Positions 1 to 10,731 of a stretch of 10,929 nucleotides of DNA are shown piece by piece; positions within the stretch are counted from its first letter, which is position 1; every line of letters starts with the position of its first letter. This stretch comes from Parcubacteria group bacterium Gr01-1014_20. Lineage in GTDB: Bacteria; Patescibacteriota; Minisyncoccia; UBA6257; 2-01-FULL-56-20. The notes below the pieces were generated by a model. That model did not search any database. It saw only the letters and a program-made list of their open reading frames with translations, and had not been told where the DNA came from. The position numbers were made by a program, and so were the translations under genes. The stretch covers positions 1 to 10,929 of the forward strand of contig VMFW01000006.1 of the NCBI GenBank assembly GCA_007376265.1. The letters are read 5' to 3'.

Positions 1-2
1 GT

Positions 3-81
3 CGGGAGAAAGCGACAGGTTTCTCCCGTGTCGGAAACAATTCAAAACCGAGGGTTTTGAAAGAGTCTCGCAACGCGAGAC
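3..81 (-). other. Cluster of three perfect short hairpins downstream of the last gene of the redox cassette. Stems are 3-11/20-28 (9 bp, 8-nt loop), 43-49/53-59 (7 bp, 3-nt loop) and 65-71/75-81 (7 bp, 3-nt loop). On the minus strand the middle hairpin is followed by a U-rich stretch (aauuguuucc). Candidate intrinsic terminator or structured RNA.
   Basis: Read directly. cgggagaaa/tttctcccg, caaaacc/ggttttg and gtctcgc/gcgagac are exact reverse complements. The position is 100-180 nt downstream of the stop at 181-183. Confidence 0.3.
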
Positions 82-180
82 GACGCATAATTGCATTCCA
101 TTAACTTTTAAGACGTACTTGGCCATAATATTAACTAATTAACTTATAACTTTTTGATGATATATTTTATTCGTTAGAGA

Positions 181-636
181 CTATTGATTAGGTAGGGGAT
201 TGGTATCTTCCTTAATGATATCCCTCACTTTGATTCTGCCAATCATGTCGAAATGAGTACGTTTGGTCCCTTTGTATTCACCTTCGCCGCAGGGTACGGA
301 ACAGTAAAATGGAAATTCACCGGGTTGGGTAGCTACGAACTCAACCACGATCGTTTCGTTAGCTGGCATCCGTTGGGACACGCCGAGCGCGTCAATCGCG
401 ATACCGTGGTCATAACTATCTTTATTTACGACCGTCATGATGACTTTGTCGCCCCGATTAACCTCGATTTCTTCGGGTTCAAAAAGCCAGGCGTCTTTTA
501 CCGCGGTCACCGTTACTTTTACAACTTCGCCGGTTGTGAGGGGTTTGTCTTCGGACTTTAAGAAAGCTACCCGATAGATAATGCCTCCCCCAATGATTAG
601 AACTCCGACGATGGCTATCCAGAAGTATTTATTCAT
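181..636 (-). CDS. Cupredoxin-fold protein with a CuA-like ligand set, anchored by a single N-terminal transmembrane helix (151 aa)
   Basis: N-terminal hydrophobic helix (FWIAIVGVLIIGGGIIY). The C-terminal region FYCSVPCGEGEYKGTKRTHFDM gives C-x3-C-G ... H-x2-M, the pattern seen in the CuA site of cytochrome oxidase subunit II (C-S-E-L-C-G ... H-x2-M). An upstream His (SYDHGIAID) resembles the first CuA His. Fold and size fit the cupredoxin_1-type family. Only 4 nt separate it from the upstream gene, which indicates operon coupling. Confidence 0.7.
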   Translation of the reverse strand: MNKYFWIAIVGVLIIGGGIIYRVAFLKSEDKPLTTGEVVKVTVTAVKDAWLFEPEEIEVNRGDKVIMTVVNKDSYDHGIAIDALGVSQRMPANETIVVEFVATQPGEFPFYCSVPCGEGEYKGTKRTHFDMIGRIKVRDIIKEDTNPLPNQ

Positions 637-640
637 CCCG

Positions 641-2926
641 TTATTTTTTCATAACTACCGGAGGGACGGTAATATATTTTTTGACAGCCCAGCTCAAAAC
701 GAAGATCAAAATGATGGAGACTATTAAATTTCGCCACCAAGCGGCACCCTCGCCACTTTTCTCAACTGCAATTTGGGAATCTCTAGCCTCAATCCAAAAT
801 TCAGCGACTAAGGAGGCGTCTGCTTCCAGGGTTGTTCCCTCTGGTCTAAATTGCGCGAAGACTTTATAGAAGCCAGCTTTTTTAATTGGTAAGGTGAAAC
901 CGACATGGTCGGCTTCGGTTTCTCCACTTACGGTGGTTGTAGCTTCCTCCGTCTCGCCACCGTGGGCCAAGGCCTCTAGGGCGTTAGCGACTTGCGTGGG
1001 GTTTTTGGTATCCATCAGTGTGTGACTATGGTCGGTGTGACCGTCACCCTCGGGGAGATTACCGTGACCAGCCGCATCTGGGTGAGTATGAATAAATTGA
1101 CTCAGGTCTTCAGAGATGAGGGCGAGGTGCATTTTTTCGCCTAAGTAATTCTCAAGTTTTGCTGAATGACCAAAGGAATCCATAATTTCAAAGTCCACGT
1201 GGTTGTTGCCTAAACCAACTTCCGCATAGTCCAAAGTTACCTGATAGTTATCGACAATTCGGCTCTTTACTATTTCTTTCTCTAGTTTAGACGCGGGCCC
1301 TGCGCCTGCGACCGGAACTATTGGGTGGCCAAAGGCATGGTTTTCTCCTTTATATTTTATTTCTGACCAAATCTTGAAATAGCCCGGTTCTTTAAAAATG
1401 TGTTCGATGGTAAACAAACCACTTTCTTCGACTTTCATGTCTGGATGAATGTGAAAGAAGTTGGTTAGATCATCCCTGACCCCGATTACATGCATTTTTT
1501 TCTCGTGCTGGATTTCTAGGTCCGCTTCGGTAACAAAGTTATTATCCGGTCTGATTCTTACCGAAAATCCCAGTTGAGTTTGGTCTCCACTTTCGGGTTT
1601 GTCGGGCGTTACAACCAGACTAACTACTATTCCCTCAGCAACCTCAGTTTCCTCGTGATAAAAACTTTCGTGAGCTCCGGCGTGACTCTCGTCGCCCATC
1701 ATTTCGCTGTCTTGCATATGCCCATCCTCCATGTGCTCATCCATCATCTCTTCTATGCCGTGAGCTTGGGCCTTTTCTCTGAAGCGGTGAGGCAAAACAT
1801 AACCAAAAACCAGAATTAGAACTAAAGAGACAGAAATAATAGTCCAAAAATGGTAGGGGAGGTTTTTTTTCGCGCTTTCTTTTTCAGGCGAGTCTAGTAG
1901 CGCTTGAGTCGCTTTCCTTTTTCTTAAGTAATACCAAAATAGCGGCGTGATCCATAGGAAAAGTAAAACCCAGGTGCCCCAACTAATCGGCAGACTAAAA
2001 AGTCCGGTCGAGGTTTCCGGTGGCAGGCCGTGCGCGTGGGGAGCGGCTAGATTTAACCTCTCCGAGACAATCCCGAGGAATTTCTCTTCGCCAGTTAGCT
2101 CTTCGAGGAAGGTGTGTTGACCAGAGGCTACCCACCAATCGTGGGAAAAAAGCCCTAGTACTAAAATGAAACCCGCAACCAAAACCATGCCCCACCCAGT
2201 GGCTCGTTGGATTCTATCTTTGTTTTTAACTAGGCCGGCGAGGAGATTGACCCCTAGGATGGCTAGGATGGCTAGGAAGATGAGTGGCAAAACTCGTCCG
2301 ACGGCATGGGTAAAAAAGAGAAGCCAGCCATAAAAAACGTCGCCGGAAACTGCGATGCGAGTCAAAATCACCGGAGTGGCTGGATGCGGACAGCCAACAC
2401 CAATGTTTCCCAGGAAGAGCCCTAAGAGCAGGGCCTTTAGGACATCCTTCTGCTTCTGGATGAACCCCGGAAAGGCTCCGCTGTAAGATGGCATTCGAAG
2501 GCGGATTAGGCCTAGTTCGCCGAGAGCAAAGAGGAAAGCAAAAGTTCCAGCGACAAAATAGAGCCAGTTTTTGACGACTTCTAGGGGCGCACCGAGTGAA
2601 CCAATGGCGACCTTGCCGAGAACTGCCGCAAAGACTCCATAGAGACTTAGTGTGAAGGCGACTCCGATGCCGAAGGCGACGGCGATTGTAAAACCTTTAA
2701 CCGCGCCCTTGCCCATTGAAAGAGGGACAATGACGAAGGCTAGCGGCAGGGTGCAAGGAAGCACGATCATGGATAGTCCCGCCGCAAAACTAAAAAGGTA
2801 CCAGCCGGCACCAACGGGACTAGCTGGACTCCAAAGAAAGAACCAAATTAAACCGAGCGCAATAGCGGCGAAAAGTACAAAAAGAAGGGTAATTAAAATC
2901 TTTCTAAATCCTGAAATTTCTTCCAT
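641..2926 (-). CDS. 761-aa multidomain membrane protein. It comprises a CcdA/DsbD-like transmembrane thiol-disulfide relay domain (aa ~35-260), two extra TM helices, a Met/His-rich segment (aa 388-426), two tandem copies of a ~120-aa His-containing extracytoplasmic domain (aa ~430-545 and ~550-715) and a C-terminal TM anchor.
   Basis: The N-terminal domain has the hallmark CcdA/DsbD TM motifs with Cys in predicted TM1 (LPCTLPL, Cys57) and TM4 (GVGCPHPATP, Cys179). The Met/His-rich stretch HGIEEMMDEHMEDGHMQDSEMMGDESHAGAHESFYHEE (DNA 1649-1765) was verified by back-translation. A duplicated motif, KMHVIGVRDDLTNFFHIHPD (DNA 1439-1498) and KMHLALISEDLSQFIHTHPD (DNA 1076-1135), is followed in both copies by G-x-FT...GFYK. 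The second copy carries a His-rich insert (AAGHGNLPEGDGHTDHSHTLMD). A terminal hydrophobic helix (WWRNLIVSIILIFVLSWAV) is present. No SD is seen. Confidence 0.75.
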   Translation of the reverse strand: MEEISGFRKILITLLFVLFAAIALGLIWFFLWSPASPVGAGWYLFSFAAGLSMIVLPCTLPLAFVIVPLSMGKGAVKGFTIAVAFGIGVAFTLSLYGVFAAVLGKVAIGSLGAPLEVVKNWLYFVAGTFAFLFALGELGLIRLRMPSYSGAFPGFIQKQKDVLKALLLGLFLGNIGVGCPHPATPVILTRIAVSGDVFYGWLLFFTHAVGRVLPLIFLAILAILGVNLLAGLVKNKDRIQRATGWGMVLVAGFILVLGLFSHDWWVASGQHTFLEELTGEEKFLGIVSERLNLAAPHAHGLPPETSTGLFSLPISWGTWVLLFLWITPLFWYYLRKRKATQALLDSPEKESAKKNLPYHFWTIISVSLVLILVFGYVLPHRFREKAQAHGIEEMMDEHMEDGHMQDSEMMGDESHAGAHESFYHEETEVAEGIVVSLVVTPDKPESGDQTQLGFSVRIRPDNNFVTEADLEIQHEKKMHVIGVRDDLTNFFHIHPDMKVEESGLFTIEHIFKEPGYFKIWSEIKYKGENHAFGHPIVPVAGAGPASKLEKEIVKSRIVDNYQVTLDYAEVGLGNNHVDFEIMDSFGHSAKLENYLGEKMHLALISEDLSQFIHTHPDAAGHGNLPEGDGHTDHSHTLMDTKNPTQVANALEALAHGGETEEATTTVSGETEADHVGFTLPIKKAGFYKVFAQFRPEGTTLEADASLVAEFWIEARDSQIAVEKSGEGAAWWRNLIVSIILIFVLSWAVKKYITVPPVVMKK

Positions 2927-2958
2927 GCGTTATCGCTAAACAACGAGTTTCTACTCGC

Positions 2959-3387
2959 TTAAATTGTAGCATTTCGGACTGCTGGTGACTCTGATTTTTT
3001 CCACAGCAAGCCGGTTAGCGCCAGGCTGGCGCCTAAAAGCCCGATGTCTCGGAAGGTAATTAGAAAGTTTGCCTCCTTGAATGGGATGAAGGCGAGAACA
3101 AGAATTCCAAAAAGTTCGAGAGTTGAAAGGAGGGCTACCCAAAAGACGATTTTTGGTTTTAGAAACCAAGCCAAAAAAATCAGGGCCATCAAAATTTCTA
3201 TGAATCCCTGAACTCTTAAATAGGTGTTCACGGCCACAACTTGTTCTATCCATCCCGAAAGCCAGTAGGGGAGAGCCCAATGCCAACTTCCCGGGTGTTT
3301 CATGAGATCAAACCCAGAATATAGATACATTATTCCCAAGCCAAGGCGGAGAGACCATTCGACACCAATTTTATTTAGGAATGACAT
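2959..3387 (-). CDS. DoxX-family integral membrane protein (142 aa, 4 predicted TM helices)
   Basis: N-terminal LRLGLGIMYLYSGFDLMKHP matches the DoxX signature (R-L-x-L-G-x-x-F-x-x-x-G-x-x-K). There are four hydrophobic helices. The stop lies 32 nt upstream of the start of the fusion gene. Confidence 0.7.
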   Translation of the reverse strand: MSFLNKIGVEWSLRLGLGIMYLYSGFDLMKHPGSWHWALPYWLSGWIEQVVAVNTYLRVQGFIEILMALIFLAWFLKPKIVFWVALLSTLELFGILVLAFIPFKEANFLITFRDIGLLGASLALTGLLWKKSESPAVRNATI

Positions 3388-3403
3388 TCGGTTTTTTATT
3401 TGG

Positions 3404-3670
3404 TTACCCAGAAAGTTCTTTCAGTTTGGTAAGTAGTTTGTCTTTACTGAATCCACCCGTAGAAAAAAGTTCGTTATTGATAATGATCCCCGGGGAGGCC
3501 ATAATCATGTATTTTTGGATGAGTTCACGGCCTTCGGGAGTCGTGATATCCGATTTTTTGTATTCTACATTAGGCCATTCCTTTTCAATCGATCGCCAAA
3601 ATTTTTCGAATTCTAAACAGTGCTGACAGCCGGGCGAGGAAAGTTCTTGGAGCAAAACTTGTTGAGGCAT
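3404..3670 (-). CDS. Small cytoplasmic thioredoxin-fold protein with a CxxC active site (CQHC), 88 aa, with no signal peptide
   Basis: SPGCQHCLEFEKFW near the N-terminus is a CxxC redox motif in thioredoxin/glutaredoxin-like context. Size and layout are typical of short Trx_3-like proteins. The gene lies 16 nt upstream of the DoxX gene. Confidence 0.65.
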   Translation of the reverse strand: MPQQVLLQELSSPGCQHCLEFEKFWRSIEKEWPNVEYKKSDITTPEGRELIQKYMIMASPGIIINNELFSTGGFSKDKLLTKLKELSG

Positions 3671-3679
3671 ATCGCCTTA

Positions 3680-3688
3680 ATTATAGCA
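3680..3688 (-). promoter_or_regulatory. Extended -10 element TGcTATAAT. It ends 9 nt upstream of the thioredoxin-like ATG, which implies a leaderless or near-leaderless transcript.
   Basis: The minus-strand sequence tttgcTATAATtaaggcgatATG was read directly. No SD is present. Confidence 0.4.
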
Positions 3689-3698
3689 AATCCCACTA

Positions 3699-4457
3699 CT
3701 ACAGGTAGCCAATTTTTTTCAGCGAAGATTCGTTTTCCCATTCCCAGAGTTTTTTAGCTCCAAGGAAGGCCGCGAAGTCGTTTTGCCAATGAGGGAATTC
3801 CTGAAACTCAATATCACCCCTCATTTCACTCCAAGCGTGTTCGAGGCAGGGGAGACGACCGTTCGGTTTTATTTTTTCGATGCCACCTTTTAATCTTCGA
3901 CGAGCGCCGCAGAATTGGCAGGTTTGGATTTGGTCAATTTTTAGAATCCAGCGGGTTTCGAGGCCAGTGAATTCATCTTTCAGGGCATCCATATAGGCGG
4001 AGGTTTGGAGGTTGTAGTCACGGTAGATGGCCTGAGAGGTTTTGATATCTAAAACACCAAGCTTGCCATCAATGAAGGCCACGGCGTCGACGGTGCCGGC
4101 GTAACGGTGGTTGTGATTGACTACTCTTTTTTCCACAAAATCTTCAGTGACGTGAATGTTTTTTTGGTTTATGAAATCTTGAAACGATTTTATCGCTGGT
4201 TGGATTTTGGGATCGTTTTTTGGCTCTCGTCCCAAAAGGATGGCTTCGACGGCTTCATGAACTGCCGTGCCTTCGCTGGCGGATTTATTTTTTACAGACT
4301 CGCCTTCGGCAAAATTTTTCACACCCGCGTAAAATCGGTAAAGAGCCGGTTTGGCTTTAATATCAACAATTTTGGTGACGCGAGGGTACCAAACGCCACC
4401 CACGTCATAGCCGTTTTTTTCTTTGAAGGTTTCGCTAGTTTGAAAATCGTTATACAT
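3699..4457 (-). CDS. PD-(D/E)xK superfamily nuclease, Cas4/RecB-nuclease-like (252 aa), with a C-terminal Cys/His cluster
   Basis: Motif I is GTAVHEAVE (G-x3-H-E-x2-E). Motif II Asp is in GTVDAVAFIDG. Motif III is LDIKTSQ (D-x-K). The QxxxY motif (QTSAY) is characteristic of the RecB/Cas4 nuclease clade. The C-terminal segment is CQFC...PCLEH. No cas1/cas2 or repeat array lies nearby. Confidence 0.65.
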   Translation of the reverse strand: MYNDFQTSETFKEKNGYDVGGVWYPRVTKIVDIKAKPALYRFYAGVKNFAEGESVKNKSASEGTAVHEAVEAILLGREPKNDPKIQPAIKSFQDFINQKNIHVTEDFVEKRVVNHNHRYAGTVDAVAFIDGKLGVLDIKTSQAIYRDYNLQTSAYMDALKDEFTGLETRWILKIDQIQTCQFCGARRRLKGGIEKIKPNGRLPCLEHAWSEMRGDIEFQEFPHWQNDFAAFLGAKKLWEWENESSLKKIGYL

Positions 4458-4467
4458 AAGTGGGGGT

Positions 4468-4473
4468 ATTATA
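4468..4473 (-). promoter_or_regulatory. -10 hexamer TATAAT lying 10 nt upstream of the nuclease ATG (leaderless-type arrangement)
   Basis: The minus-strand sequence aagTATAATacccccacttATG was read directly. The 121-nt intergenic region has no SD. Confidence 0.35.
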
Positions 4474-4578
4474 CTTCTTTTCGTTCTGTGATTGAACTTA
4501 TGATTTGGTTTGGGATTGATGAGTTTCGGTTGATTTTATGATTGGAGGGATGTTTTTACGAAAAGCAGCAATTTTGTT

Positions 4579-5181
4579 TTACCCCAGGGATTCTAAGACG
4601 GGGACTGGGTTTACGTCTTTTCCCTTCGGGTTCGGGCCGCAGCCGTTTTCTTGATCCATTCTAAAACCATCTTTCTTGAAGACTGAAAAATGCAAGTGGG
4701 GCGCGGTCGAGAGACCGGTGCGGCCGACCTCTCCAATTTTTTCTTTGAGGTCAAGATCCTGGTTCTCTTTAACACTGATTTTTGATAGATGGGCAAAAAG
4801 AAAGAAAAAGTCGCTTTTGTCGCTCTCGACAATTACAAATTTCCCGTACCCTCGTCTCGGACAGTAAAGTTCTTGATTGCCGACTGCCATCACTTTGCCC
4901 TTGGTTGGTGTTAGGACGGGAGTGCCGAGTTTAGCGGGAATATCGATGCCGTTATGTCGCTTGCCGGCAAGTCTTATTTGAGCAAACTCCGTTCGGCCGT
5001 ACCCTTGAGAAATGTAAACAGTGCTGTTTTTTCCGGGTAGAAGCGGAGAATTTTTCAGTTGGGCCGACGAGTCTGTTTTTGAGTATTCACCGCGAACGAT
5101 CAAGCCAAGGGTTTCAAGGGTAGAACTAATCGCAACAAGAGAAAAGAATGTAAATATAAGGAGTAAAAAAAACTTACCCAT
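4579..5181 (-). CDS. M23 (LytM-type) peptidoglycan metalloendopeptidase with an N-terminal signal/anchor
   Basis: HNGIDI (H-x-x-x-D) and PHLHF (H-x-H) are the M23 zinc motifs. The ATG at 5181 directly precedes the signal peptide MGKFFLLLIF and overlaps the murC stop (ATGGGTAAG), so it is preferred over the GTG at 5220 given in the track. Confidence 0.8.
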   Translation of the reverse strand: MGKFFLLLIFTFFSLVAISSTLETLGLIVRGEYSKTDSSAQLKNSPLLPGKNSTVYISQGYGRTEFAQIRLAGKRHNGIDIPAKLGTPVLTPTKGKVMAVGNQELYCPRRGYGKFVIVESDKSDFFFLFAHLSKISVKENQDLDLKEKIGEVGRTGLSTAPHLHFSVFKKDGFRMDQENGCGPNPKGKDVNPVPVLESLG

Positions 5182-6556
5182 GGGAAGGAAGGAGGGAGGG
5201 CGTGTAATCGACAATGTCACCGGCGCCCATCATGATGATACATGAATCATGAAGTTTAAAACCTTGATTATCGAGGATTTTGGGTAGGAATTTATTGATC
5301 CGGTTAGGGGAGGGGAGATAGTAAGCCTTTTTTCGTGGATATTTTTTGCGGATGGCTTCGACCAGCTTTTTTGAGGTAAAAGTTGAGGTGACTTTGTCTC
5401 GGCCAGCAACTTCGTAGACGGGAATAATGATGAGAAAATCAGCTAGTGAAAATGATTCGGTAAATTCTTTGAAGAGAGATTTAAGGCGTTTAGCTTGGTG
5501 GGGTTGGTAGACACAGATAAGTTTTTTTTCAGGGAATTTTTCTCGAAAGGCTTGGAGGGAAGCTTTTATTTCGGTTGGGTGGTGAGCATAGTCATCGTAA
5601 ACGTGAATCTTGAATCTTGAATCATGAATAAGGAATCCTCTGAACTCCATCCGGCGCCAGGCGCCGGTATAAGAACCGAGCGCTTTTAGGGCAATCGATT
5701 TTTTAATTTTTAAAATCTTAGCCATGACTAAAACTGCACTCGCATTCGAGATATTGTGATCACCGGGAATTCGGAGAATTTTTTTTAACTCTGCTTTTTT
5801 GGCCGAATACCAGACAACTTCCAGACTCCGTTTTTTTGCGATTTTTGAAATAGGGGATTTAAGGGAGGAAAGATTTTTGTCGTCTTGGTTGAGTATAAGC
5901 GAGCCGCCAGGTTTAGTTCTGCTCATAAATTTCAGAAATGTTTTCTTGACGTCCGAGAGGTCTCTATAGAAATCCAAATGCTCTTTGTCGATCGTGGTAA
6001 CGATGATGACATCGCTTTCATAATTTAAGAAAGAAGCTTTCCATTCATCAGCTTCAATAACGAGCCACTTGGAACGCCCGTATCGAAAATTCTTATTGCC
6101 AAATCCTTTAAGGTTAGTGCCGATGATAACATTAGGATCGAGCTTGGCTTTGATGAGCGTGAGCGCGGCGAGCGCGGTCGTGGTGGACTTACCGTGACTC
6201 CCCGCGATAGAGATAGTCTTGTAGACTCTGGTTAGGCAGCCCAGGGTTTCGGGGTAGGAAAGGGGTTTTAGGCCCCGCTTTTTTGCTTCAACCATCTCTG
6301 GATTGTCGGGTCTAATAGCGGGGCTATAAATGACCATATTTAGGTCTCTTTTTGGCAAGTTAGCTTTTTTATGGCCAATTTTGACTCTAGCGCCCTCCGT
6401 TCTAAGGTTCGTAATGTTAGCGCTACTTGAGATGTCAGAGCCGCTCACCACCCAATTTTGAGCTAAAAACCAGCGAGCTAGAGAGCTGATTCCTATGCCA
6501 CCGATACCTATAAAATGGGCTACCGGTTTTGACTGGGGGAGGGTTTTTCTAGGCAT
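5174..6556 (-). CDS. murC: UDP-N-acetylmuramate--L-alanine ligase
   Basis: The N-terminal HFIGIGGIGISS motif is the MurC signature. The central P-loop is GSHGKSTTTA, and DYAHHP is present. The ATG at 6556 (MPRK...) is preferred over the TTG at 6562 given in the track. Confidence 0.85.
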   Translation of the reverse strand: MPRKTLPQSKPVAHFIGIGGIGISSLARWFLAQNWVVSGSDISSSANITNLRTEGARVKIGHKKANLPKRDLNMVIYSPAIRPDNPEMVEAKKRGLKPLSYPETLGCLTRVYKTISIAGSHGKSTTTALAALTLIKAKLDPNVIIGTNLKGFGNKNFRYGRSKWLVIEADEWKASFLNYESDVIIVTTIDKEHLDFYRDLSDVKKTFLKFMSRTKPGGSLILNQDDKNLSSLKSPISKIAKKRSLEVVWYSAKKAELKKILRIPGDHNISNASAVLVMAKILKIKKSIALKALGSYTGAWRRMEFRGFLIHDSRFKIHVYDDYAHHPTEIKASLQAFREKFPEKKLICVYQPHQAKRLKSLFKEFTESFSLADFLIIIPVYEVAGRDKVTSTFTSKKLVEAIRKKYPRKKAYYLPSPNRINKFLPKILDNQGFKLHDSCIIMMGAGDIVDYTPSLLPSHG

Positions 6557-6587
6557 TTGCAACGTATGTTATCTGTCGCACAATATA

Positions 6588-6689
6588 GCTTTCACGACAG
6601 TATTATTCATGAGGCTTGAGGGGTGTTCGCTATTGGGTACCCTCACCTTTTTTGTGTTTTGTGTCTATCCAGAATACTGTCGTGAAAGC
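6588..6689. repeat. Perfect 17-bp inverted repeat (gctttcacgacagtatt / aatactgtcgtgaaagc) flanking a 68-nt core, in the murC upstream region
   Basis: Arms at 6588-6604 and 6673-6689 are exact reverse complements. Neither arm extends further. Confidence 0.5.
6617..6656 (+). terminator. Terminator-like hairpin on the plus strand, tgaggg-[17 nt]-ccctca followed by ccTTTTTTgtgTTTTgtg, located inside the 17-bp inverted repeat
   Basis: The 6-bp stem at 6617-6622/6640-6645 and the T6/T4 runs were read directly. Orientation is opposite to all genes, so function is unclear. Confidence 0.25.
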
Positions 6690-6691
6690 CA

Positions 6692-6740
6692 GCAATTATT
6701 TTACAACGGCAATAAATAATAGCCATCGTAAAATAATTGC
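6692..6740. repeat. Perfect 11-bp AT-rich inverted repeat (gcaattatttt / aaaataattgc) with a 27-nt spacer, immediately downstream of the stop of the 6744-7145 gene
   Basis: 6692-6702 and 6730-6740 are exact reverse complements. Confidence 0.4.
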
Positions 6741-6743
6741 GCC

Positions 6744-7145
6744 CTATTTCCTGACTGAGATTATCGAAAAAACCTTTTTGAGCGCATTGGCTATGGCGTC
6801 CACTAGGTATACAAAAAATCCGCCAATTTTGCCAAAGGTTTCGCCGATTGTGAGTCCGGTTATTTTTTCGAACCAGCCGTCAATAAAAGTAAAAGCTGGT
6901 CGAACTAGATCAAAAAGCCACCAAAATATGATTTTAATGATTTCGTAAATTTTGACCACGATATTTTTCACAAATTCTATGGCGCGATAAAATGAGTTTC
7001 GAACGGGTTCGAAAACTTCTCGCAAAGCTTGGTTAGGAGTTTTAATGCCGTAGTTCCATTCTTCATCGGCTGAATGAACTTGAGTCGAGGCGAACGTGAT
7101 AATTAATCCAATTCCAAAAAGTAGGGCGAGGTTTTTTTTGCGCAT
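6744..7145 (-). CDS. Small secreted or membrane-associated hypothetical protein (133 aa) embedded in the cell-wall gene block
   Basis: Signal peptide with an AXA-like site (TQVHS-AD). A strongly hydrophobic internal segment is present (IIKIIFWWLFDLV). No recognisable catalytic motif is seen. The gene lies 11 nt downstream of the MurE-like gene. Confidence 0.45.
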   Translation of the reverse strand: MRKKNLALLFGIGLIITFASTQVHSADEEWNYGIKTPNQALREVFEPVRNSFYRAIEFVKNIVVKIYEIIKIIFWWLFDLVRPAFTFIDGWFEKITGLTIGETFGKIGGFFVYLVDAIANALKKVFSIISVRK

Positions 7146-7156
7146 ATCTTATTGTC

Positions 7157-8470
7157 TTATATCAAACCGAAAGTAGTTTTTTCTAATTCTTGTCTGACCA
7201 CTTCTCGGTCGTCCCACGGAATCGTTTTGTTTGTGATTATCATTGATTGTTCAGCTCCTTTCCCCGTAATGATAACAATATCGTCCTCAAGAGCCAGTGA
7301 CAAGGCTTTCTGAATTCCCTCTCTCCTGTCTTCGATCGGGAAAAGATTTTTATTTCTTACTTTACCATTTTTTTCTGCCGCTTGGGTAATTGACTCGATA
7401 ATTTCTTGGGGATCGTCGTCGTAGGGGTCGACATTTGAAACTACTATAAGATCGGCGAGTTCGGCGGCCACTTGACCCATTCGAGGCCTTTTCTTTTTAT
7501 CCCGCCCGCCACCTTCGGCGCCGATAAGAATTATGATTCGGTTTTTTTTGATTTTATTAGCGAGCTCAAGAATTGCCCTCAGACTGACTTCATCGTGGGC
7601 GTAGTCAACAAAAACGGAATACTTTTTACTGGTCTTCACTAGTTCCATTCGGCCTGGCACACTCGTCACTTTTCCTATCCCCTCTTTTATAGACTTATAA
7701 TCTAGGCCTAGAGCGGAGGTGGTAGCGATGGCGGCCAGAGCGTTCGTAACGTTATGAGCCCCCAAGAGTGCTAGTTCATAGTTGCGATTGCTCACTGAAA
7801 AGGTAACATTTCTCGGAGTGACTTGTATTTTTTCGGCCACAAAATTGGCCTTAGAATTTATGCCGTAAGTAATTTTTTGATCAGCTTCAGATTCAAGGAG
7901 TTTTTCGCTTTCTTCTGTGTCCATGTTGATAACAATCGTTTTCGGAATTTTTTTGCCGTCAATAGTTTTTCGTTGGTTTTTTCCGAGCGCAGAAAATATT
8001 TTTCGGTTCATCATTTTTAGTCGTTCATAGTCCCAGCCATGAATTTCTAGATATTCCGGGTAGAGCGTAACTAGAACCGCGACATCGTAACGAATAGCGT
8101 GGTGTCGCCATTGCTCAATGCCTTCTGATGGGGTTTCGATTACAGCGTACTTGCATCCTGCTCGCACCATTGCTCTCAACATTTTCTGCATCGCGAAACG
8201 ACCGGGCATGGTCATGTGATAAGGGTTTAGAATTTCCTTTTCACCTAGGTGAATCGTAGCGGTGCTAGTTAAGCCGGTTTGGTGGTTGGCGGCTCGAAGG
8301 CATGACCAGATAAATTTGGCCGTGGTTGTTTTGCCTCGGGTGCCGACTACGCCGATTATCACCATTTTTTTTGAAGGGAGCCCATAGATTGCCGCGCCAA
8401 GGTAGGGCAGGAGCCAATGGTACCAACCTATCAGGAATTTCGGAATTAATTTTTTGATAATTTTTTTCAT
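7157..8470 (-). CDS. Mur ligase family protein with MurE-type central and C-terminal domains but lacking the N-terminal UDP-MurNAc-binding domain. It begins instead with a ~35-aa hydrophobic/aromatic segment.
   Basis: The P-loop GVVGTRGKTTT is already at aa 41-51. VFVDYAHDEVSL is present. GAEGGGRDKKKRPRMG...SNVDPYDDDP parallels MurE (GCGGDRDKGKRPLMG...TDDNPRTEEP). The C-terminal ITGKGAEQ parallels AGKGHE. The ATGA start/stop overlap with the FemAB gene was seen directly. Confidence 0.7.
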   Translation of the reverse strand: MKKIIKKLIPKFLIGWYHWLLPYLGAAIYGLPSKKMVIIGVVGTRGKTTTAKFIWSCLRAANHQTGLTSTATIHLGEKEILNPYHMTMPGRFAMQKMLRAMVRAGCKYAVIETPSEGIEQWRHHAIRYDVAVLVTLYPEYLEIHGWDYERLKMMNRKIFSALGKNQRKTIDGKKIPKTIVINMDTEESEKLLESEADQKITYGINSKANFVAEKIQVTPRNVTFSVSNRNYELALLGAHNVTNALAAIATTSALGLDYKSIKEGIGKVTSVPGRMELVKTSKKYSVFVDYAHDEVSLRAILELANKIKKNRIIILIGAEGGGRDKKKRPRMGQVAAELADLIVVSNVDPYDDDPQEIIESITQAAEKNGKVRNKNLFPIEDRREGIQKALSLALEDDIVIITGKGAEQSMIITNKTIPWDDREVVRQELEKTTFGLI

Positions 8471-9432
8471 TTAAACTTTTTAATAAGCTGGAATAGGAAG
8501 TGCCATTTTTTATTTAAAGCGAGGTCCCAGGTGCCAATATATTTTACAGTTTGACTCCCAAAGCTTTTTTTGAAAGACGTTATGCCTGACCATTTTTTAT
8601 TATTTTCATCAATACCCCACAGGTCGAAAATGTTAAGGCCGTTGGCTTTAGCATCGAGAATGGCTTCCCATAAAAGCAGAGATGGGGCATTGAATTTACC
8701 ATAACCCTCCAGAGAAGAAGCCAAGCCATAGGTAGAGCTTTCGGCAAAGTGAATTATTAGGGCAGCACTGACTGTTTTGTCCCCTACCTGACCCAGGAAA
8801 ATTTTTGATCGACAGTTGCCGGTCAGCGCGAAAACCTCGCGGTAATACTTTTCTGGGTAGGTTCGGAGCTCGTGGCGTTTGTTGGTGGCTTCGAATATTT
8901 CCCAAAACTCATTGAATTTTTCCAATTTCTCTTTAGTAGATTCAATCTTTATGATTTTTACTCCTCTTTTTTGGGCGGTTTTGATGGCGTAGCGTGTATC
9001 TTTATCTAATTTTTCGTATAGTTCACTCTCTTTGATTTTCAGGTTCAAAACTGCGGTAGTTTCTGGCTGAACCTGTTTGCTCTTTTTAAAACCTAGAACC
9101 TGAAGGATTTTTTTGTCCTCGGTGTTTTCTTCAACCGCCGGTTCAACCCTTAAGAAGATGACCTTGTGCCTCTCTTTTAGTTTTTGAATTTCCGAGATTA
9201 GAATTTCTAGTTTTTTGAGGGACCCGCTTGGGCCGCGAGGAACGTAAAAATAATTTAAGCCAAACGGTAATTTGTATTTGATGAGTAGGGCGGATAAGTC
9301 AGCTACCGAGACGTGGAACACCTCTCGGCCAAGATTTCTCTGAAGCTCTCCCCATTCCCACGATTGGAGATAGGATCCATTCTGGGCGAAGACAAGTTTG
9401 TCCCACTCCTTTTGATCCTCAACTAATTTCAT
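8467..9432 (-). CDS. FemAB-family peptidoglycan aminoacyltransferase (FemX/MurM-like)
   Basis: 321 aa. The overall FemAB-like composition and length fit. The FemAB assignment is my recognition of the family, not a motif match I can point to. The gene is flanked by and translationally coupled to the Mur ligase (ATGA) and the M23 gene (TAAATG). Confidence 0.65.
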   Translation of the reverse strand: MKLVEDQKEWDKLVFAQNGSYLQSWEWGELQRNLGREVFHVSVADLSALLIKYKLPFGLNYFYVPRGPSGSLKKLEILISEIQKLKERHKVIFLRVEPAVEENTEDKKILQVLGFKKSKQVQPETTAVLNLKIKESELYEKLDKDTRYAIKTAQKRGVKIIKIESTKEKLEKFNEFWEIFEATNKRHELRTYPEKYYREVFALTGNCRSKIFLGQVGDKTVSAALIIHFAESSTYGLASSLEGYGKFNAPSLLLWEAILDAKANGLNIFDLWGIDENNKKWSGITSFKKSFGSQTVKYIGTWDLALNKKWHFLFQLIKKFK

Positions 9433-10731
9433 TTAGAGGTATTGCTCAGGATCTAGGTCACCACCGACTGGCATCGGACCGCAGACTCTTGAGGCCTTGG
9501 TTCCTTCCGGAAAACCAGCTCGAGCTGGAGTCAGCGTGTTATTGGCAAAAACAGTAAAGTGAAGGTGTGGGCCGGTAGCCCAACCACTTTTTCCCATATA
9601 ACCGATTACCTCGCCCTCCTTGACCTCCTGGCCGATTGAAACGATGAATCGTGAGAGATGAGCGTAAAGAGTGGTTAAGCCGTTTTTGTGTTTGACGACG
9701 ATGAGTTTGCCGTAAGCCCCGCCGCGGCAACCTCTGTACTGATCTTGATCGGCTACGTTGATTACTATGCCATCTCCGGCCGCTAAGATGGGCGTTCCGA
9801 TCGGTCCGCCGAGGTCAAGTCCGTTGTGGTGCTGGCCGCGGTAGTTTTTTTTGGCAAATTCAGTTACACCGTATCTTTGGGTTATTTTTACAGTTTTAAC
9901 CGGCCAGAGAAAAACGCCTGGTCTGGGGGTGGGCAGAAGATTAGGATCGATCTGTTTGCGCAGTTCGGTTTCAACTTTTTCAATTTCAGCCGCTATTTCT
10001 TCTTGCTTTTTCTCGAGTTCTTTCAGTTGCTGATTGTAAATGCTTTCTTTGTTTTTAGTGTTCGCGAGGAGGGTTTCCTTAGTATCTTCTTGGTCCTCGA
10101 TAATAATTCTTTTATTTTCCGAATTTCTCTTTCGCTCGGATATTTCAACGAGTTTGGCATCTATATCACCGACTTTTCTTACCTTAGCACCTCTCAGTTC
10201 ATCTAGGCCGCCAATTTCGATGCCGAGTTGTGAGCTTGTGTCAGTTAGAGATTGAGCTTCTAGGAGGTTTTCGGCTAAGCTATTTCCTTTGAGTAAAACT
10301 ATTAGGAGATTGGTGTGGCTGTTTCTCTGAAGGCGTCTTAGGAGTTGAACGATGGCGTCGCGTTTGTCATCGACTGAGAGTTCAATGTCCTGGATGTCGT
10401 ATTTCAGCGAGTCTATTTCTAGGGAAAGCTTCTCGGTCGCGACCTTGTCGGCGCGGATGCTCAGATTGAGTTGTGAAATATTATTTTTAATAGTCGTTAA
10501 CTCTTTTTGGAGCCCAACCTTTTCCGTTTTAGTGTCCTGAAGTTTTTCTTGGGTTTCGGCGAGCTCTCGGTTTAGCTTTTCGAGTTCAAGGCTTTGGGAG
10601 CGGATACGGCTTTCTAGTTCCTCTCGGCTAAGATTTACCTCAGCTGAATCTACCGCCAAGGTCAGATTGGAGGTTACAACCGAAGAAAGAACAACGGAGA
10701 ATAAAATTATTTTTTTAGCTAGATTGATCAT
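9433..10731 (-). CDS. EnvC-like murein hydrolase/activator. It has an N-terminal signal peptide, a long coiled-coil region and a C-terminal M23 peptidase domain.
   Basis: A signal peptide is followed by ~250 aa of heptad-like, E/K/L/Q-rich sequence. The C-terminal M23 motifs are HHNGLDLG and GPHLHFTV. Confidence 0.8.
   Translation of the reverse strand: MINLAKKIILFSVVLSSVVTSNLTLAVDSAEVNLSREELESRIRSQSLELEKLNRELAETQEKLQDTKTEKVGLQKELTTIKNNISQLNLSIRADKVATEKLSLEIDSLKYDIQDIELSVDDKRDAIVQLLRRLQRNSHTNLLIVLLKGNSLAENLLEAQSLTDTSSQLGIEIGGLDELRGAKVRKVGDIDAKLVEISERKRNSENKRIIIEDQEDTKETLLANTKNKESIYNQQLKELEKKQEEIAAEIEKVETELRKQIDPNLLPTPRPGVFLWPVKTVKITQRYGVTEFAKKNYRGQHHNGLDLGGPIGTPILAAGDGIVINVADQDQYRGCRGGAYGKLIVVKHKNGLTTLYAHLSRFIVSIGQEVKEGEVIGYMGKSGWATGPHLHFTVFANNTLTPARAGFPEGTKASRVCGPMPVGGDLDPEQYL

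Follow-up and report, generated by a model that had tools for sequence, protein, structure and literature searches.

In Bacillus subtilis, the extracytoplasmic, Ig-like YtkA-family domains of CtaK (YtkA) and YcnJ carry conserved histidines, and genetics links them to copper trafficking and to formation of the CuA centre in the cupredoxin CtaC; CtaK itself assists CuA assembly from outside the cytoplasm, and its His118Tyr mutant is defective (PMC9145763, PMC13344008). The TlpA/ScoI/PcuC system of Bradyrhizobium and CcdA-ResA relays follow a common logic, in which cytoplasmic thioredoxin feeds a CcdA/DsbD relay for CuA cysteine reduction outside the cell and the metal is put in place by a copper chaperone. 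ScsABCD likewise has a DsbD-family membrane reductase in a copper-linked operon, tying copper stress to envelope thiol redox (PMC10907172). The electrons of ScsB go to ScsC and ScsD, both thioredoxin-fold proteins, and the system, found in proteobacterial diderms, lacks a cupredoxin, YtkA domains and a linked P-type ATPase. CuA domains proper are known from NosZ and cytochrome oxidase subunit II (CoxB), and a membrane-anchored cupredoxin-fold copper protein adjoins copA in the CupA-CopA system of Streptococcus pneumoniae. Here we describe a parcubacterial operon that shares features with each of these systems, and for which no published description was found in the literature.

The window analysed (10,929 nucleotides of contig VMFW01000006.1, Parcubacteria group bacterium Gr01-1014_20) contains four co-oriented minus-strand ORFs at 3404-3670 (88 aa), 2959-3387 (142 aa), 641-2926 (761 aa) and 181-636 (151 aa), separated by 16, 32 and 4 nt in the ORF listing, the same gaps as in the original prediction made from the letters of the window. 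The features of the locus, in window coordinates, are as follows.

3404-3670, minus strand: small cytoplasmic thioredoxin-fold protein, 88 aa, with its CQHC motif at 3611-3634
2959-3387, minus strand: 142-aa four-helix membrane protein, distantly DoxX/MauE-like
1907-2926, minus strand: N-terminal half of the fusion protein (residues 1-340), with a leader TM helix, six-TM CcdA/DsbD-type core, external loop and TM7
2741-2764, minus strand: C58 in VLPCTLPL, CcdA/DsbD-type core
2372-2401, minus strand: C179 in GVGCPHPATP, CcdA/DsbD-type core
2006-2146, minus strand: external loop (residues 261-307) with invariant H262, H271, H297 and H299
1655-1906, minus strand: cytoplasmic loop, TM8 and acidic Met/His-rich tract (residues 379-424, 1655-1792), the tract predicted outside
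1292-1654, minus strand: YtkA/CtaK-like Ig domain 1 (residues 425-545), triad H479, H492, H494 (KMHVIGVRDDLTNFFHIHPD)
782-1264, minus strand: YtkA/CtaK-like Ig domain 2 (residues 555-715), triad H600, H613, H615 (KMHLALISEDLSQFIHTHPD)
671-751, minus strand: TM anchor closing the fusion protein at its C-terminus, with a hydropathy peak at residues 730-752 and basic residues behind it (KK tail)
181-636, minus strand: membrane-anchored cupredoxin, 151 aa, anchor at residues 4-26 (559-627)
244-303, minus strand: cupredoxin ligand loop with the CuA-type ligands C112, C116, H128 and M131; the fifth, H77, lies at 406-408
1-126, minus strand: spacer before the missing copA; a decayed copA 5'-end copy (MAKYVLKVNGMQ...) comes first, then hairpin-rich sequence

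These four genes open a copper operon of six genes that is conserved in hundreds of tiny Parcubacteria. Relatives encode the thioredoxin, the small TM protein, the fusion, the cupredoxin, an HMA/E1-E2 ATPase and an HMA protein, all in the same orientation, and alignment with L007 and L009, together with translations, indicates that the window and its contig stop before the true copA start. In an 87%-identical relative this start (MKYVLKVKGMHCASC) leads into an 820-aa HMA/E1-E2 ATPase, with a 68-aa HMA protein behind it. CopA of a close relative carries GMHCASC, CPC, YN(x4)P and M(x2)SS, a set of motifs established as the signature of P1B-1 Cu(I) ATPases. Among fusion-centred loci from 80 species-level genomes, the cupredoxin is found in 70 of 73 evaluable cases, copA in 55 of 58, the thioredoxin in 62 of 70 and the small TM protein in 50 of 70. 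Conversely, when 80 metagenome loci were centred on the cupredoxin, the fusion stood immediately upstream in 36 of 37, copA was found in 39 of 40, and the thioredoxin and TM protein were there in 29 of 29. Synteny is therefore tight in both directions and, since the same order is seen in both sets, its recurrence is far beyond chance. The four genes had been read as a complete electron path; they are instead the first two-thirds of a unit ending in copA-copZ and cut by the contig end, and because the unit continues in this way, its context is copper trafficking or homeostasis and not electron transfer alone. The hairpins predicted after the last gene exist (for example 61-41 on the minus strand), but sit in the spacer before copA and not at an operon end; this spacer has an RNA fold z of -3.76 and no Rfam match. 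The TATAAT proposed as a -10 box is also present (3685-3680, minus strand, 9 nt 5' of the first ATG), but lacks statistical support, because a promoter scan performed at shuffle level (5 sites against 5.3 expected) without listing it and the upstream gene ends just 28 nt away.

The proposed gene identities (a cytoplasmic CxxC thioredoxin fold, a CcdA/DsbD-type domain and a cupredoxin with CuA ligands) were upheld by profile matches and invariant residues. The 88-aa protein matches Pfam Thioredoxin_3 (E 5.9e-8) and the NCBIfam MJ0307-type thioredoxin (E 1.4e-7, well under the family cut-off), hydropathy analysis found no hydrophobic segment in it, and its CxxC is retained in 67 of 69 syntenic homologues. 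The dipeptide within this motif is variable and includes His in 51 of the 67 homologues bearing it, which bears on its redox potential and counts against the model developed below. Nothing in the analysis connects the DoxX-like protein to quinones, a link that had been suggested; it has no conserved cysteine and its gene is missing from about 30% of clusters. DsbD_TM of Pfam matches residues 45-222 of the 761-aa protein (E 1e-8, 35.2 bits; gathering score 27.1), placing the N-terminal domain in the DsbD/CcdA family, and C58, C179, H181, H207, H262, H271, H297 and H299 are each present in 121/121 sequences. The second cysteine motif, GCPHP or, in distant members, GCPNP, deviates from the PCxxP context that is canonical for CcdA. 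Hydropathy and the loop charges, judged by the positive-inside rule, agree with an N-in topology in which the His loop and the module beyond it are predicted to lie outside, as had been claimed for the Met/His and duplicated domains, and the C-terminal TM anchor is predicted to return the chain to the cytoplasm. The N-terminal half is a separate gene in about 15 genomes, split near residue 340.

Both the Met/His tract and the two His-motif repeats expected in the 761-aa protein are present. The tract (PHRFREKAQAHGIEEMMDEHMEDGHMQDSEMMGDESHAGAHESFYH) differs in length among homologues, with M409 (69%), H415 (58%) and H424 (88%) recurring. The module forms two Ig-like domains in a structure model and is YtkA-like in searches, its nearest solved folds being copper-binding CrdA and P19/Tp34; each three-histidine site sits on a beta-hairpin, the triads do not vary within a family of 4952 clusters, and domain 2 bears a disordered His-rich insert (about residues 620-670; pLDDT <50 at model residues 201-251). 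The idea of CuA maturation is strengthened by these repeats because they resemble CtaK, a CuA-assembly factor (PMC9145763, PMC13344008). Elsewhere the module is joined to Cupredoxin_1 (P0423, P0457, P0484), to DsbD_TM (P0424), to DoxX and DsbD_TM (P0436), and to CopC and CopD (P0486), the last tying it to the YcnJ type. In P0414 a ferric-reductase-type haem membrane domain takes the place of CcdA, and because both are transmembrane electron carriers we argue that the module side receives electrons. This ferric-reductase fusion rests on one representative, a point against the model.

The 151-aa protein matches Pfam Cupredoxin_1 (E 1.2e-11, 44.9 bits against a cut-off of 27) and contains the predicted C-x3-C-G...H-x2-M motif as CSVPCGEGEYKGTKRTHFDM (244-303). 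Its best solved relatives are nitrosocyanin and two CuA domains, those of NosZ and of cytochrome oxidase subunit II; all five side-chain ligands align with the CuA domains and are invariant in 121 sequences, as the membrane cysteines are in homologues of the fusion. The NosZ alignment pairs C112/C116 with CSWFC and H128/M131 with HMEM; the 8 residues inserted between them are a feature of the ligand loop in the window's clade. Other cupredoxin lineages have Gln for Met at the axial ligand, including one sister clade with the exact CuA loop spacing (CSVPCGEGHYEQ, C-x3-C-x3-H-x2-(M/Q)). The Met/Gln axial switch and the CuA loop length are typical of redox copper sites and not of Cu(I) chaperones. 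However, the Cys-to-His spacing is 11 residues in the window's clade (18 in homologue L092) against the canonical 3, which makes a binuclear CuA site less than certain.

The locus also departs from each described system. Whereas CtaK is a lipoprotein, the window's module consists of two tandem domains with strict H...HxH triads, is TM-anchored and CcdA-fused, and neighbours a free-standing 151-aa cupredoxin instead of an oxidase subunit, with no Sco encoded in the cluster. In contrast to TlpA/ScoI/PcuC, the cluster has neither a TlpA/ResA intermediate nor Sco or PCuAC, its relay and chaperone form one polypeptide, and its thioredoxin is a dedicated operon member. Unlike the CuA domains of NosZ and CoxB, the cupredoxin stands alone as a single domain, and the cluster encodes no catalytic partner for it.

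Starting from the observed gene content, synteny, invariant residues, folds and natural fusions, we propose, with a probability of roughly 45%, that the six-gene operon (trx, doxX-like, ccdA::ytkA-ytkA, cupredoxin, copA, copZ) exports copper and loads an extracytoplasmic CuA-type cupredoxin. Cytoplasmic Cu(I) would go from CopZ to CopA, the exporting P1B-1 ATPase; once outside, copper would be captured by the acidic Met/His tract and both CtaK-like domains and delivered to the cupredoxin encoded 4 nt downstream, a direction of flow that we infer. The loaded cupredoxin could then act either as a redox protein or as a copper sink. The dedicated thioredoxin would reduce both membrane cysteines in the CcdA domain, which would send reducing equivalents outward and keep the cupredoxin C-x3-C reduced for copper entry, or, alternatively or additionally, convert Cu(II) on the His sites to Cu(I). 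Keeping a CuA cysteine pair reduced is the job of TlpA in Bradyrhizobium. If the cupredoxin is outside, its pair would be the cluster's only conserved cysteines on that side, a point in favour of the model; the DoxX-like protein may be an accessory membrane partner of the CcdA half. For the relay originally predicted, the family and the cysteines fit, but direct reduction of the cupredoxin by CcdA is conjectural, the usual CcdA client not being encoded in the cluster, and we know of no precedent for it. The missing thioredoxin-fold client, the atypical second cysteine motif, ambiguous anchor charges and the long Cys-to-His spacing all count against the model.

A rather doubtful alternative, though the best-faring one, is that the operon is a copper-stress surface defence with no dedicated client. 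CopA and CopZ would export copper; the tract, His domains and cupredoxin, the last not a matured redox protein, would act as external sinks against re-entry, like CopL/CopI/CusF, and thioredoxin and CcdA would repair copper-oxidised surface thiols or shift the copper redox state in the manner of Scs. Acidic Met/His-rich tracts such as the one found here are typical of periplasmic copper-resistance proteins. The co-oriented linkage to a P1B-1 efflux ATPase and a CopZ-type chaperone, and the Helicobacter pylori copper-resistance protein CrdA as nearest solved fold of the module, also fit, as does the lack in the cluster of any encoded extracytoplasmic thioredoxin-fold acceptor of the ResA, CcmG, TlpA or ScsC type; a DsbD-family relay in a copper-induced operon has its precedent in ScsABCD (PMC10907172). 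However, a plain sink needs neither an invariant five-residue CuA set nor a Met/Gln axial switch nor, in one clade, the exact CuA loop, the cupredoxin-fusion coupling (36/37) suggests a specific partnership, and YtkA-family genetics favour copper delivery to CuA over sequestration (PMC13344008).

That the cupredoxin faces the cytoplasm as a tethered chaperone giving Cu(I) to CopA, the CcdA fusion serving some other external target, is unlikely. The idea draws on Streptococcus pneumoniae CupA, reportedly (Fu et al., 2013) a TM-anchored cupredoxin-fold protein encoded beside copA, to which the cupredoxin has a weak PDB match (2mry/4f2e, E 0.082). The anchor is flanked by one Lys before and about 1.8 Lys/Arg after, with KIKK directly after it in L092, and because these charges are ambiguous the positive-inside rule does not confidently place the cupredoxin outside. 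However, the ligand set is His/Cys/Cys/His/Met(Gln) and is accompanied by external modules and a reductant relay, whereas CupA has a Cys/Met Cu(I) site (Cys...Cys-x-Met-x-Met) and probably acts on the cytoplasmic side, and the HMA-type CopZ and the HMA domain of CopA already cover the cytoplasmic chaperone role. The best solved relatives, nitrosocyanin and the NosZ/CoxB CuA domains, are extracytoplasmic, and fusions from other phyla that carry Cupredoxin_1 after the exported module (P0423, P0457, P0484) are signal-peptide or lipoprotein proteins.

We consider it still less probable that the CcdA-like half itself handles copper, with C58, C179 and H181 as a membrane Cu(I) site and the CxxC protein as a metallochaperone, in copper uptake or return. 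The LysE transporter superfamily, of which the DsbD family is a member, includes metal-ion carriers, and invariant histidines surround the cysteines (C179-P-H181, H207) with the four-His loop at the domain mouth; the atypical second cysteine motif, the usually His-bearing thioredoxin dipeptide and the fusion of the module to the copper importer parts CopC/CopD would agree. Against this, the equivalent of H181 is Asn in the distant fusions P0424 and P0436, and is thus not essential, the haem-type electron-transfer domain replacing CcdA in P0414 points to a shared electron supply, and to our knowledge no DsbD_TM member carries metal. An ordinary cytochrome c biogenesis CcdA with unrelated neighbours, as the source annotations ('cytochrome c-type biogenesis protein' or 'CcdA') would have it, is very improbable, given that no ResA, ResB, ResC, Ccm or cytochrome c gene occurs among the Pfam-annotated neighbours in the five neighbourhoods read, that copper genes are the conserved partners in 160 loci, and that electron-transport chains are generally reported absent from CPR bacteria (PMC5581439).

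The cluster's copA and copZ may be the organism's sole copies, and copper detoxification may for that reason be the main selective advantage of the operon rather than cuproprotein maturation. On the reading that we prefer, export coupled to cupredoxin loading, a respiratory-style copper protein would be combined with an electron relay, copper-binding domains and an export pump in bacteria generally reported to lack respiration.

Four co-oriented genes occupy the start of the contig, and the ORF table agrees with the original prediction in their coordinates and in the gaps of 16, 32 and 4 nt between them. These genes, one loop of the fusion protein and the spacer that follows the cupredoxin gene are as follows:

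3404-3670, minus strand: thioredoxin-fold protein, 88 aa (ORF table; Pfam Thioredoxin_3)
2959-3387, minus strand: small TM protein, 142 aa (ORF table; no Pfam or NCBIfam match)
641-2926, minus strand: fusion protein, 761 aa (ORF table; DsbD_TM at residues 45-222)
2006-2146, minus strand: external loop after the sixth CcdA helix, fusion residues 261-307, with four invariant His
181-636, minus strand: cupredoxin, 151 aa (ORF table; Cupredoxin_1)
1-126, minus strand (3020-3190 in L007, another genome locus with the cluster): spacer after the cupredoxin stop, holding a copy of the copA start and preceding the true one

The 124-kb contig breaks off about 220 nt past the cupredoxin. In a relative that is 87% identical, genes for an 820-aa HMA/E1-E2 ATPase and then a 68-aa HMA protein come after the cupredoxin, and the same gene order is found in more distant Ryan-, Sung- and other Parcubacteria. 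The relatives encode a P1B-1 ATPase with CPC, YN, MxxSS and HMA features beside an adjacent, co-oriented HMA chaperone, as expected of copA-copZ, and the motifs of the ATPase in the 87%-identical relative (GMHCASC, CPC, YN(x4)P and M(x2)SS) form the established signature of Cu(I)-exporting P1B-1 pumps. Judged by this gene order, the cassette is truncated by the contig end and continues into copA-copZ in relatives. The hairpin-rich sequence predicted 3' of the last gene is indeed present, but it does not mark the end of the unit because relatives continue into copA, whose true start lies outside the window. The proposed -10 box exists as a TATAAT hexamer at 3685-3680 (minus strand), 9 nt 5' of the first ATG, but it was not listed by the promoter scan, and the counts from both promoter and terminator scans were no greater than in shuffled sequences. 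A 252-aa gene (3699-4457, minus strand), separated from the thioredoxin gene by 28 nt, shows weak PD-(D/E)XK nuclease and Cas4-like similarity (E 3.6e-4 and 1.8e-3, both below threshold), and its place beside the cassette is not conserved in relatives. Beyond it lies a co-oriented cell-wall block (4579-10731, minus strand) with two M23 peptidases, two Mur ligases, a FemAB-family transferase and an unassigned 133-aa protein (6744-7145), part of which also precedes the cluster in a relative with 58% identity (locus L005).

The spacer begins with a frameshifted, diverged copy of the first ~15 copA codons (M-A/T-K-Y-V/I-L-K-V-N/K-G-M-Q...) followed by ~110 nt of hairpin-rich sequence (RNA fold z -3.76), an arrangement confined to the lineage of the window. 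Within the window itself this decayed 5'-end copy is all that is visible of copA before the contig stops. An Rfam search of the window and L007 matched no RNA family to the hairpin-rich part. The spacer may represent a first HMA domain or a duplication in decay, or else a small insertion, or it may serve as a regulatory leader of copA. A mobile element with inverted ends was considered first. Its 'left end' proved to be the frameshifted copA-start copy, so that partial duplication or a decayed first HMA domain may be the simpler reading of the sequence. Two independent assemblies of the organism end within or just past the spacer.

A scan of one genome per species matched the fusion protein in at least 220 genomes, and the best 80 loci were analysed by searching stop-to-stop ORFs with the six cluster proteins. 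These loci are labelled as Patescibacteria/Parcubacteria lineages together with many MAGs submitted as 'uncultured Candidatus Saccharibacteria', and one 1.7-kb contig bears a Gammaproteobacteria label. Their commonest gene order is thioredoxin, small TM protein, fusion, cupredoxin, copA and copZ. The cupredoxin gene is present in 70 of 73 evaluable fusion-centred loci (directly downstream in 54), copA in 55/58, the thioredoxin gene in 62/70 and the small TM protein gene in 50/70. Reciprocally, among 80 metagenome loci found by a cupredoxin search, the fusion lies directly upstream in 36 of 37 cases, copA is present in 39 of 40, and the thioredoxin and TM protein genes are present in 29 of 29. 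The neighbourhood is thus conserved in relatives whether approached from the fusion or from the cupredoxin. No match to the CcdA half was obtained by tblastn against 72,556 plasmids, hence no plasmid analogue from a cultured organism.

The last gene of the cassette encodes a cupredoxin (Cupredoxin_1, 44.9 bits against a Pfam cut-off of 27) whose nearest solved relatives in the PDB are nitrosocyanin and the CuA domains of NosZ and oxidase subunit II (CoxB). Aligned with NosZ, H77 falls on the HGF His, C112/C116 on CSWFC and, after an eight-residue insertion, H128/M131 on HMEM. Each of the five is invariant across 121 sequences, in line with the predicted CuA-type ligand set, albeit with a long ligand loop in the window clade. 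Measured against the pattern H...C-x3-C-x3-H-x2-M, the window clade has 11 residues between C and H and locus L092 has 18, and a sister clade with Gln for Met has the canonical 3. This distant clade (Giovannoni-, Azam-, Terry-, Brennerbacteria and others; loci L047, L049, L050, L053, L061, L066, L075 and L085-L088) has a loop of the type CSVPCGEGHYEQ, with exact CuA spacing (C-x3-C-x3-H-x2) and an axial Gln; HFDQ also replaces HFDM in some closer lineages among the 80 genome loci. A natural CuA-type motif with Gln in the axial position has not, to our knowledge, been described. The strict His/Cys/Cys/His set, the Met/Gln axial switch and the tolerated loop excursion make the site read as a genuine redox type rather than a Cys/Met Cu(I) chaperone site, and a binuclear mixed-valence centre is putative at this predicted CuA-type site. 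In contrast to CupA, which has a Cys...Cys-x-Met-x-Met site, the window protein has H/C/C/H/M; a Cys-Gly-Met-x-Met type is present in acidobacterial and other fusions (P0423 and P0457, P handles denoting representative proteins with the module described below). The cupredoxin is a stand-alone 151-aa protein, not part of oxidase subunit II or NosZ, and no gene for either enzyme was found in the five neighbourhoods read. Its anchor consists of MNKY, about 20 hydrophobic residues and YR, with one Lys before and about 1.8 Lys/Arg and 1.7 Asp/Glu after, so that charge counting does not fix the orientation. We favour a location outside the cell for the domain, based on the location of its relatives, the module-cupredoxin fusions in exported proteins and the separate cytoplasmic CopZ.

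The C-terminal half of the fusion protein fits a predicted extracytoplasmic Ig-like beta-sandwich module with conserved copper-type His/Met residues. The YtkA profile (PF13115) has no match in the window sequence itself; it matches 8 of 19 close homologues (best E 6.9e-9), as well as P0068 and the YcnJ-like P0486. In Bacillus subtilis, the extracytoplasmic lipoprotein CtaK (YtkA), which has conserved His/Met residues, is required for the CuA centre of cytochrome caa3; its His118Tyr mutant is defective and rescued by added copper, and it is seen as a functional counterpart of PCuAC (PMC9145763). CtaK shows partial redundancy with the YtkA domain found in YcnJ, an importer (PMC13344008). Unlike the lipoprotein CtaK, the window module sits between TM8 and TM9 of the fusion. 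Two CtaK-like domains beside a CuA-type cupredoxin provide the strongest support for the maturation role first proposed.

A profile of the two-domain module matched 4952 representative clusters (50% identity), 2940 of them at E<=1e-10, and the His triads are kept in all aligned members of the best 150 matches. Several of these proteins are natural fusions. A signal peptide or lipobox precedes the module and Cupredoxin_1 in P0423 (Pyrinomonadaceae), P0457 and P0484, the latter two with an additional YHYH domain; P0486 joins CopC, CopD and the module as in YcnJ; P0475 joins HMBD to the module; P0424 has the module before DsbD_TM, in reverse order; and P0436, which combines DoxX, DsbD_TM and the module, is followed by cupredoxin, copA and copZ genes. 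In P0414 (527 aa, ENA ERZ27297570), a single representative, a ferric-reductase-like haem membrane domain (Pfam Ferric_reduct, E 9.9e-8) stands at the CcdA position, joined to the same two-domain module with its His triads. By domain architecture, the fusions connect the module to copper, an exported-side cupredoxin, a DoxX-like protein and transmembrane electron carriers. The presence of two unrelated electron-carrying membrane domains in the same place, the ferric-reductase case with n=1, argues that the CcdA half contributes electron supply and not metal transport. The neighbourhood of the acidobacterial module-cupredoxin lipoprotein contains no copper genes and is therefore uninformative on partners. 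Neither the full fusion nor profiles derived from it gave anything useful when searched against solved structures, and a weak match of the C-terminal profile to the CuA domain of ba3 oxidase (E 0.012) was set aside as fold-level noise.

Assignment of the N-terminal half to the CcdA/DsbD family stands, as its DsbD_TM match over residues 45-222 scores 35.2 bits against a Pfam gathering score of 27.1, while the NCBIfam DsbD and TsoB models match far below their cut-offs. One cysteine per three-helix half (C58 and C179) is kept in 121/121 sequences and also in distant fusions. The canonical CcdA cysteine context is P-C-x-x-P; the first motif, LPCTLP, matches this pattern, and the second reads G-C-P-H-P, with Asn for His (G-C-P-N-P) in distant members. 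In the external loop that comes after helix six, H262, H271 and H297-x-H299 are invariant, as are two tryptophans, and the loop resembles an additional metal site at the outer entrance to the predicted cysteine relay. About 15 genomes apparently encode the fusion as two adjacent genes, split near residue 340 in a cytoplasmic loop (loci L025, L031, L064, L068, L072, L073, L076, L078, L081, L089 and others), indicating that the 761-aa gene fuses a CcdA half with a module half. The cytoplasmic CxxC protein was correctly foreseen: the 88-aa protein matches Thioredoxin_3 (33.1 bits against 24.8, E 5.9e-8), carries CQHC and lacks a hydrophobic segment or export signal, and CxxC is kept in 67/69 homologues. 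The CcdA half would perform transmembrane thioredoxin-dependent disulfide exchange; the dedicated cytoplasmic CxxC protein is syntenic in 62/70 loci. In the five neighbourhoods read, the cluster encodes no extracytoplasmic thioredoxin-fold acceptor. In L004 (Sungbacteria), the region just upstream of the cluster (1216-5135) encodes a flavoprotein resembling thioredoxin reductase along with a glutaredoxin, a DsbA-like protein and a further pyridine-nucleotide disulfide oxidoreductase; the DsbA-like gene lies about 3 kb upstream and is not general among loci. This locus hints at a larger thiol-redox neighbourhood in some lineages. Profiles did not bear out the DoxX identity proposed for the 142-aa protein, which has no match up to E 5; 11 of 55 homologues match below threshold (best E 0.004), and the DoxX part of P0436 scores 22.8 bits against a cut-off of 23.6.

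We tentatively propose, at a probability of roughly 0.45, that the cluster is a copper export, capture and insertion system that loads the cupredoxin using reductant passed from thioredoxin to CcdA. CopZ and CopA would export Cu(I), the Met/His tract and two CtaK-like domains would bind copper outside and load the cupredoxin, and the thioredoxin-CcdA relay would send reducing equivalents outward, to maintain C112/C116 in the reduced state, for the reduction of Cu(II) at the His sites, or both. Weak points of this model are the lack of a thioredoxin-fold acceptor in the cluster, the atypical second cysteine motif, the anchor charges that leave orientation unfixed and the long ligand loop of the window clade. 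The main rival, which we consider rather unlikely, is surface copper defence, with the proteins acting only as sinks and the relay as general thiol repair as in Scs (PMC10907172). The haem-domain variant P0414 (n=1) and the many HxH motifs allow another, improbable reading in which the fusion is a thiol-driven transmembrane copper reductase forming a minimal extracytoplasmic redox chain with the cupredoxin; electrons would pass from thioredoxin through the CcdA cysteines to copper at the four-His loop and two three-His sites, and on to the cupredoxin. If true, this would be an outlet for reducing power in bacteria without quinones or cytochromes or, alternatively, a copper oxidoreductase outside the cell with Cu(II), oxygen species or nitrite as substrates. 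A cytoplasm-facing CupA-like chaperone is very improbable, as a separate cytoplasmic CopZ is already encoded, and a metal-translocating CcdA-like domain is highly unlikely, as the ferric-reductase-type domain at the same place in P0414 (n=1) points to electron supply. Ordinary cytochrome c biogenesis is scarcely credible, and the database labels 'cytochrome c biogenesis protein CcdA' and 'plastocyanin' for cluster genes are probably misleading.

All parts of the cluster belong to known families; neither copper operons nor CcdA relays nor CuA assembly factors are new in themselves. The combination conserved across Parcubacteria appears to be undescribed: a CcdA relay and tandem CtaK-like domains in one fused protein, together with a dedicated thioredoxin, a DoxX-like partner, copA-copZ and a CuA-type cupredoxin that stands alone and has Gln-axial and loop-insertion variants. 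Full-text literature on cupredoxin or CcdA with Parcubacteria, Patescibacteria or CPR yielded only a lone 'plastocyanin-like' cupredoxin as a possible NirK electron donor. The usual picture of Parcubacteria and other CPR bacteria is of fermenters that lack electron-transport chains, yet at least 220 species-level genomes match the fusion and the 160 examined loci retain a six-gene unit centred on a respiratory-type copper site. This would surprise a copper or CPR specialist and is directly testable, the function being inferred. The Gln-for-Met axial and loop-insertion variants are natural experiments in copper-site chemistry, and the role of a CuA-type protein in cells without an oxidase is the question raised. 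If the export, capture and insertion model is true, the operon would be a compact, self-contained route to an extracytoplasmic CuA-type centre, combining pump, chaperone domains and relay and dispensing with Sco, PCuAC and TlpA, and it would provide a testable role for the tandem YtkA family, which is large (about 4950 clusters at 50% identity) and little understood.
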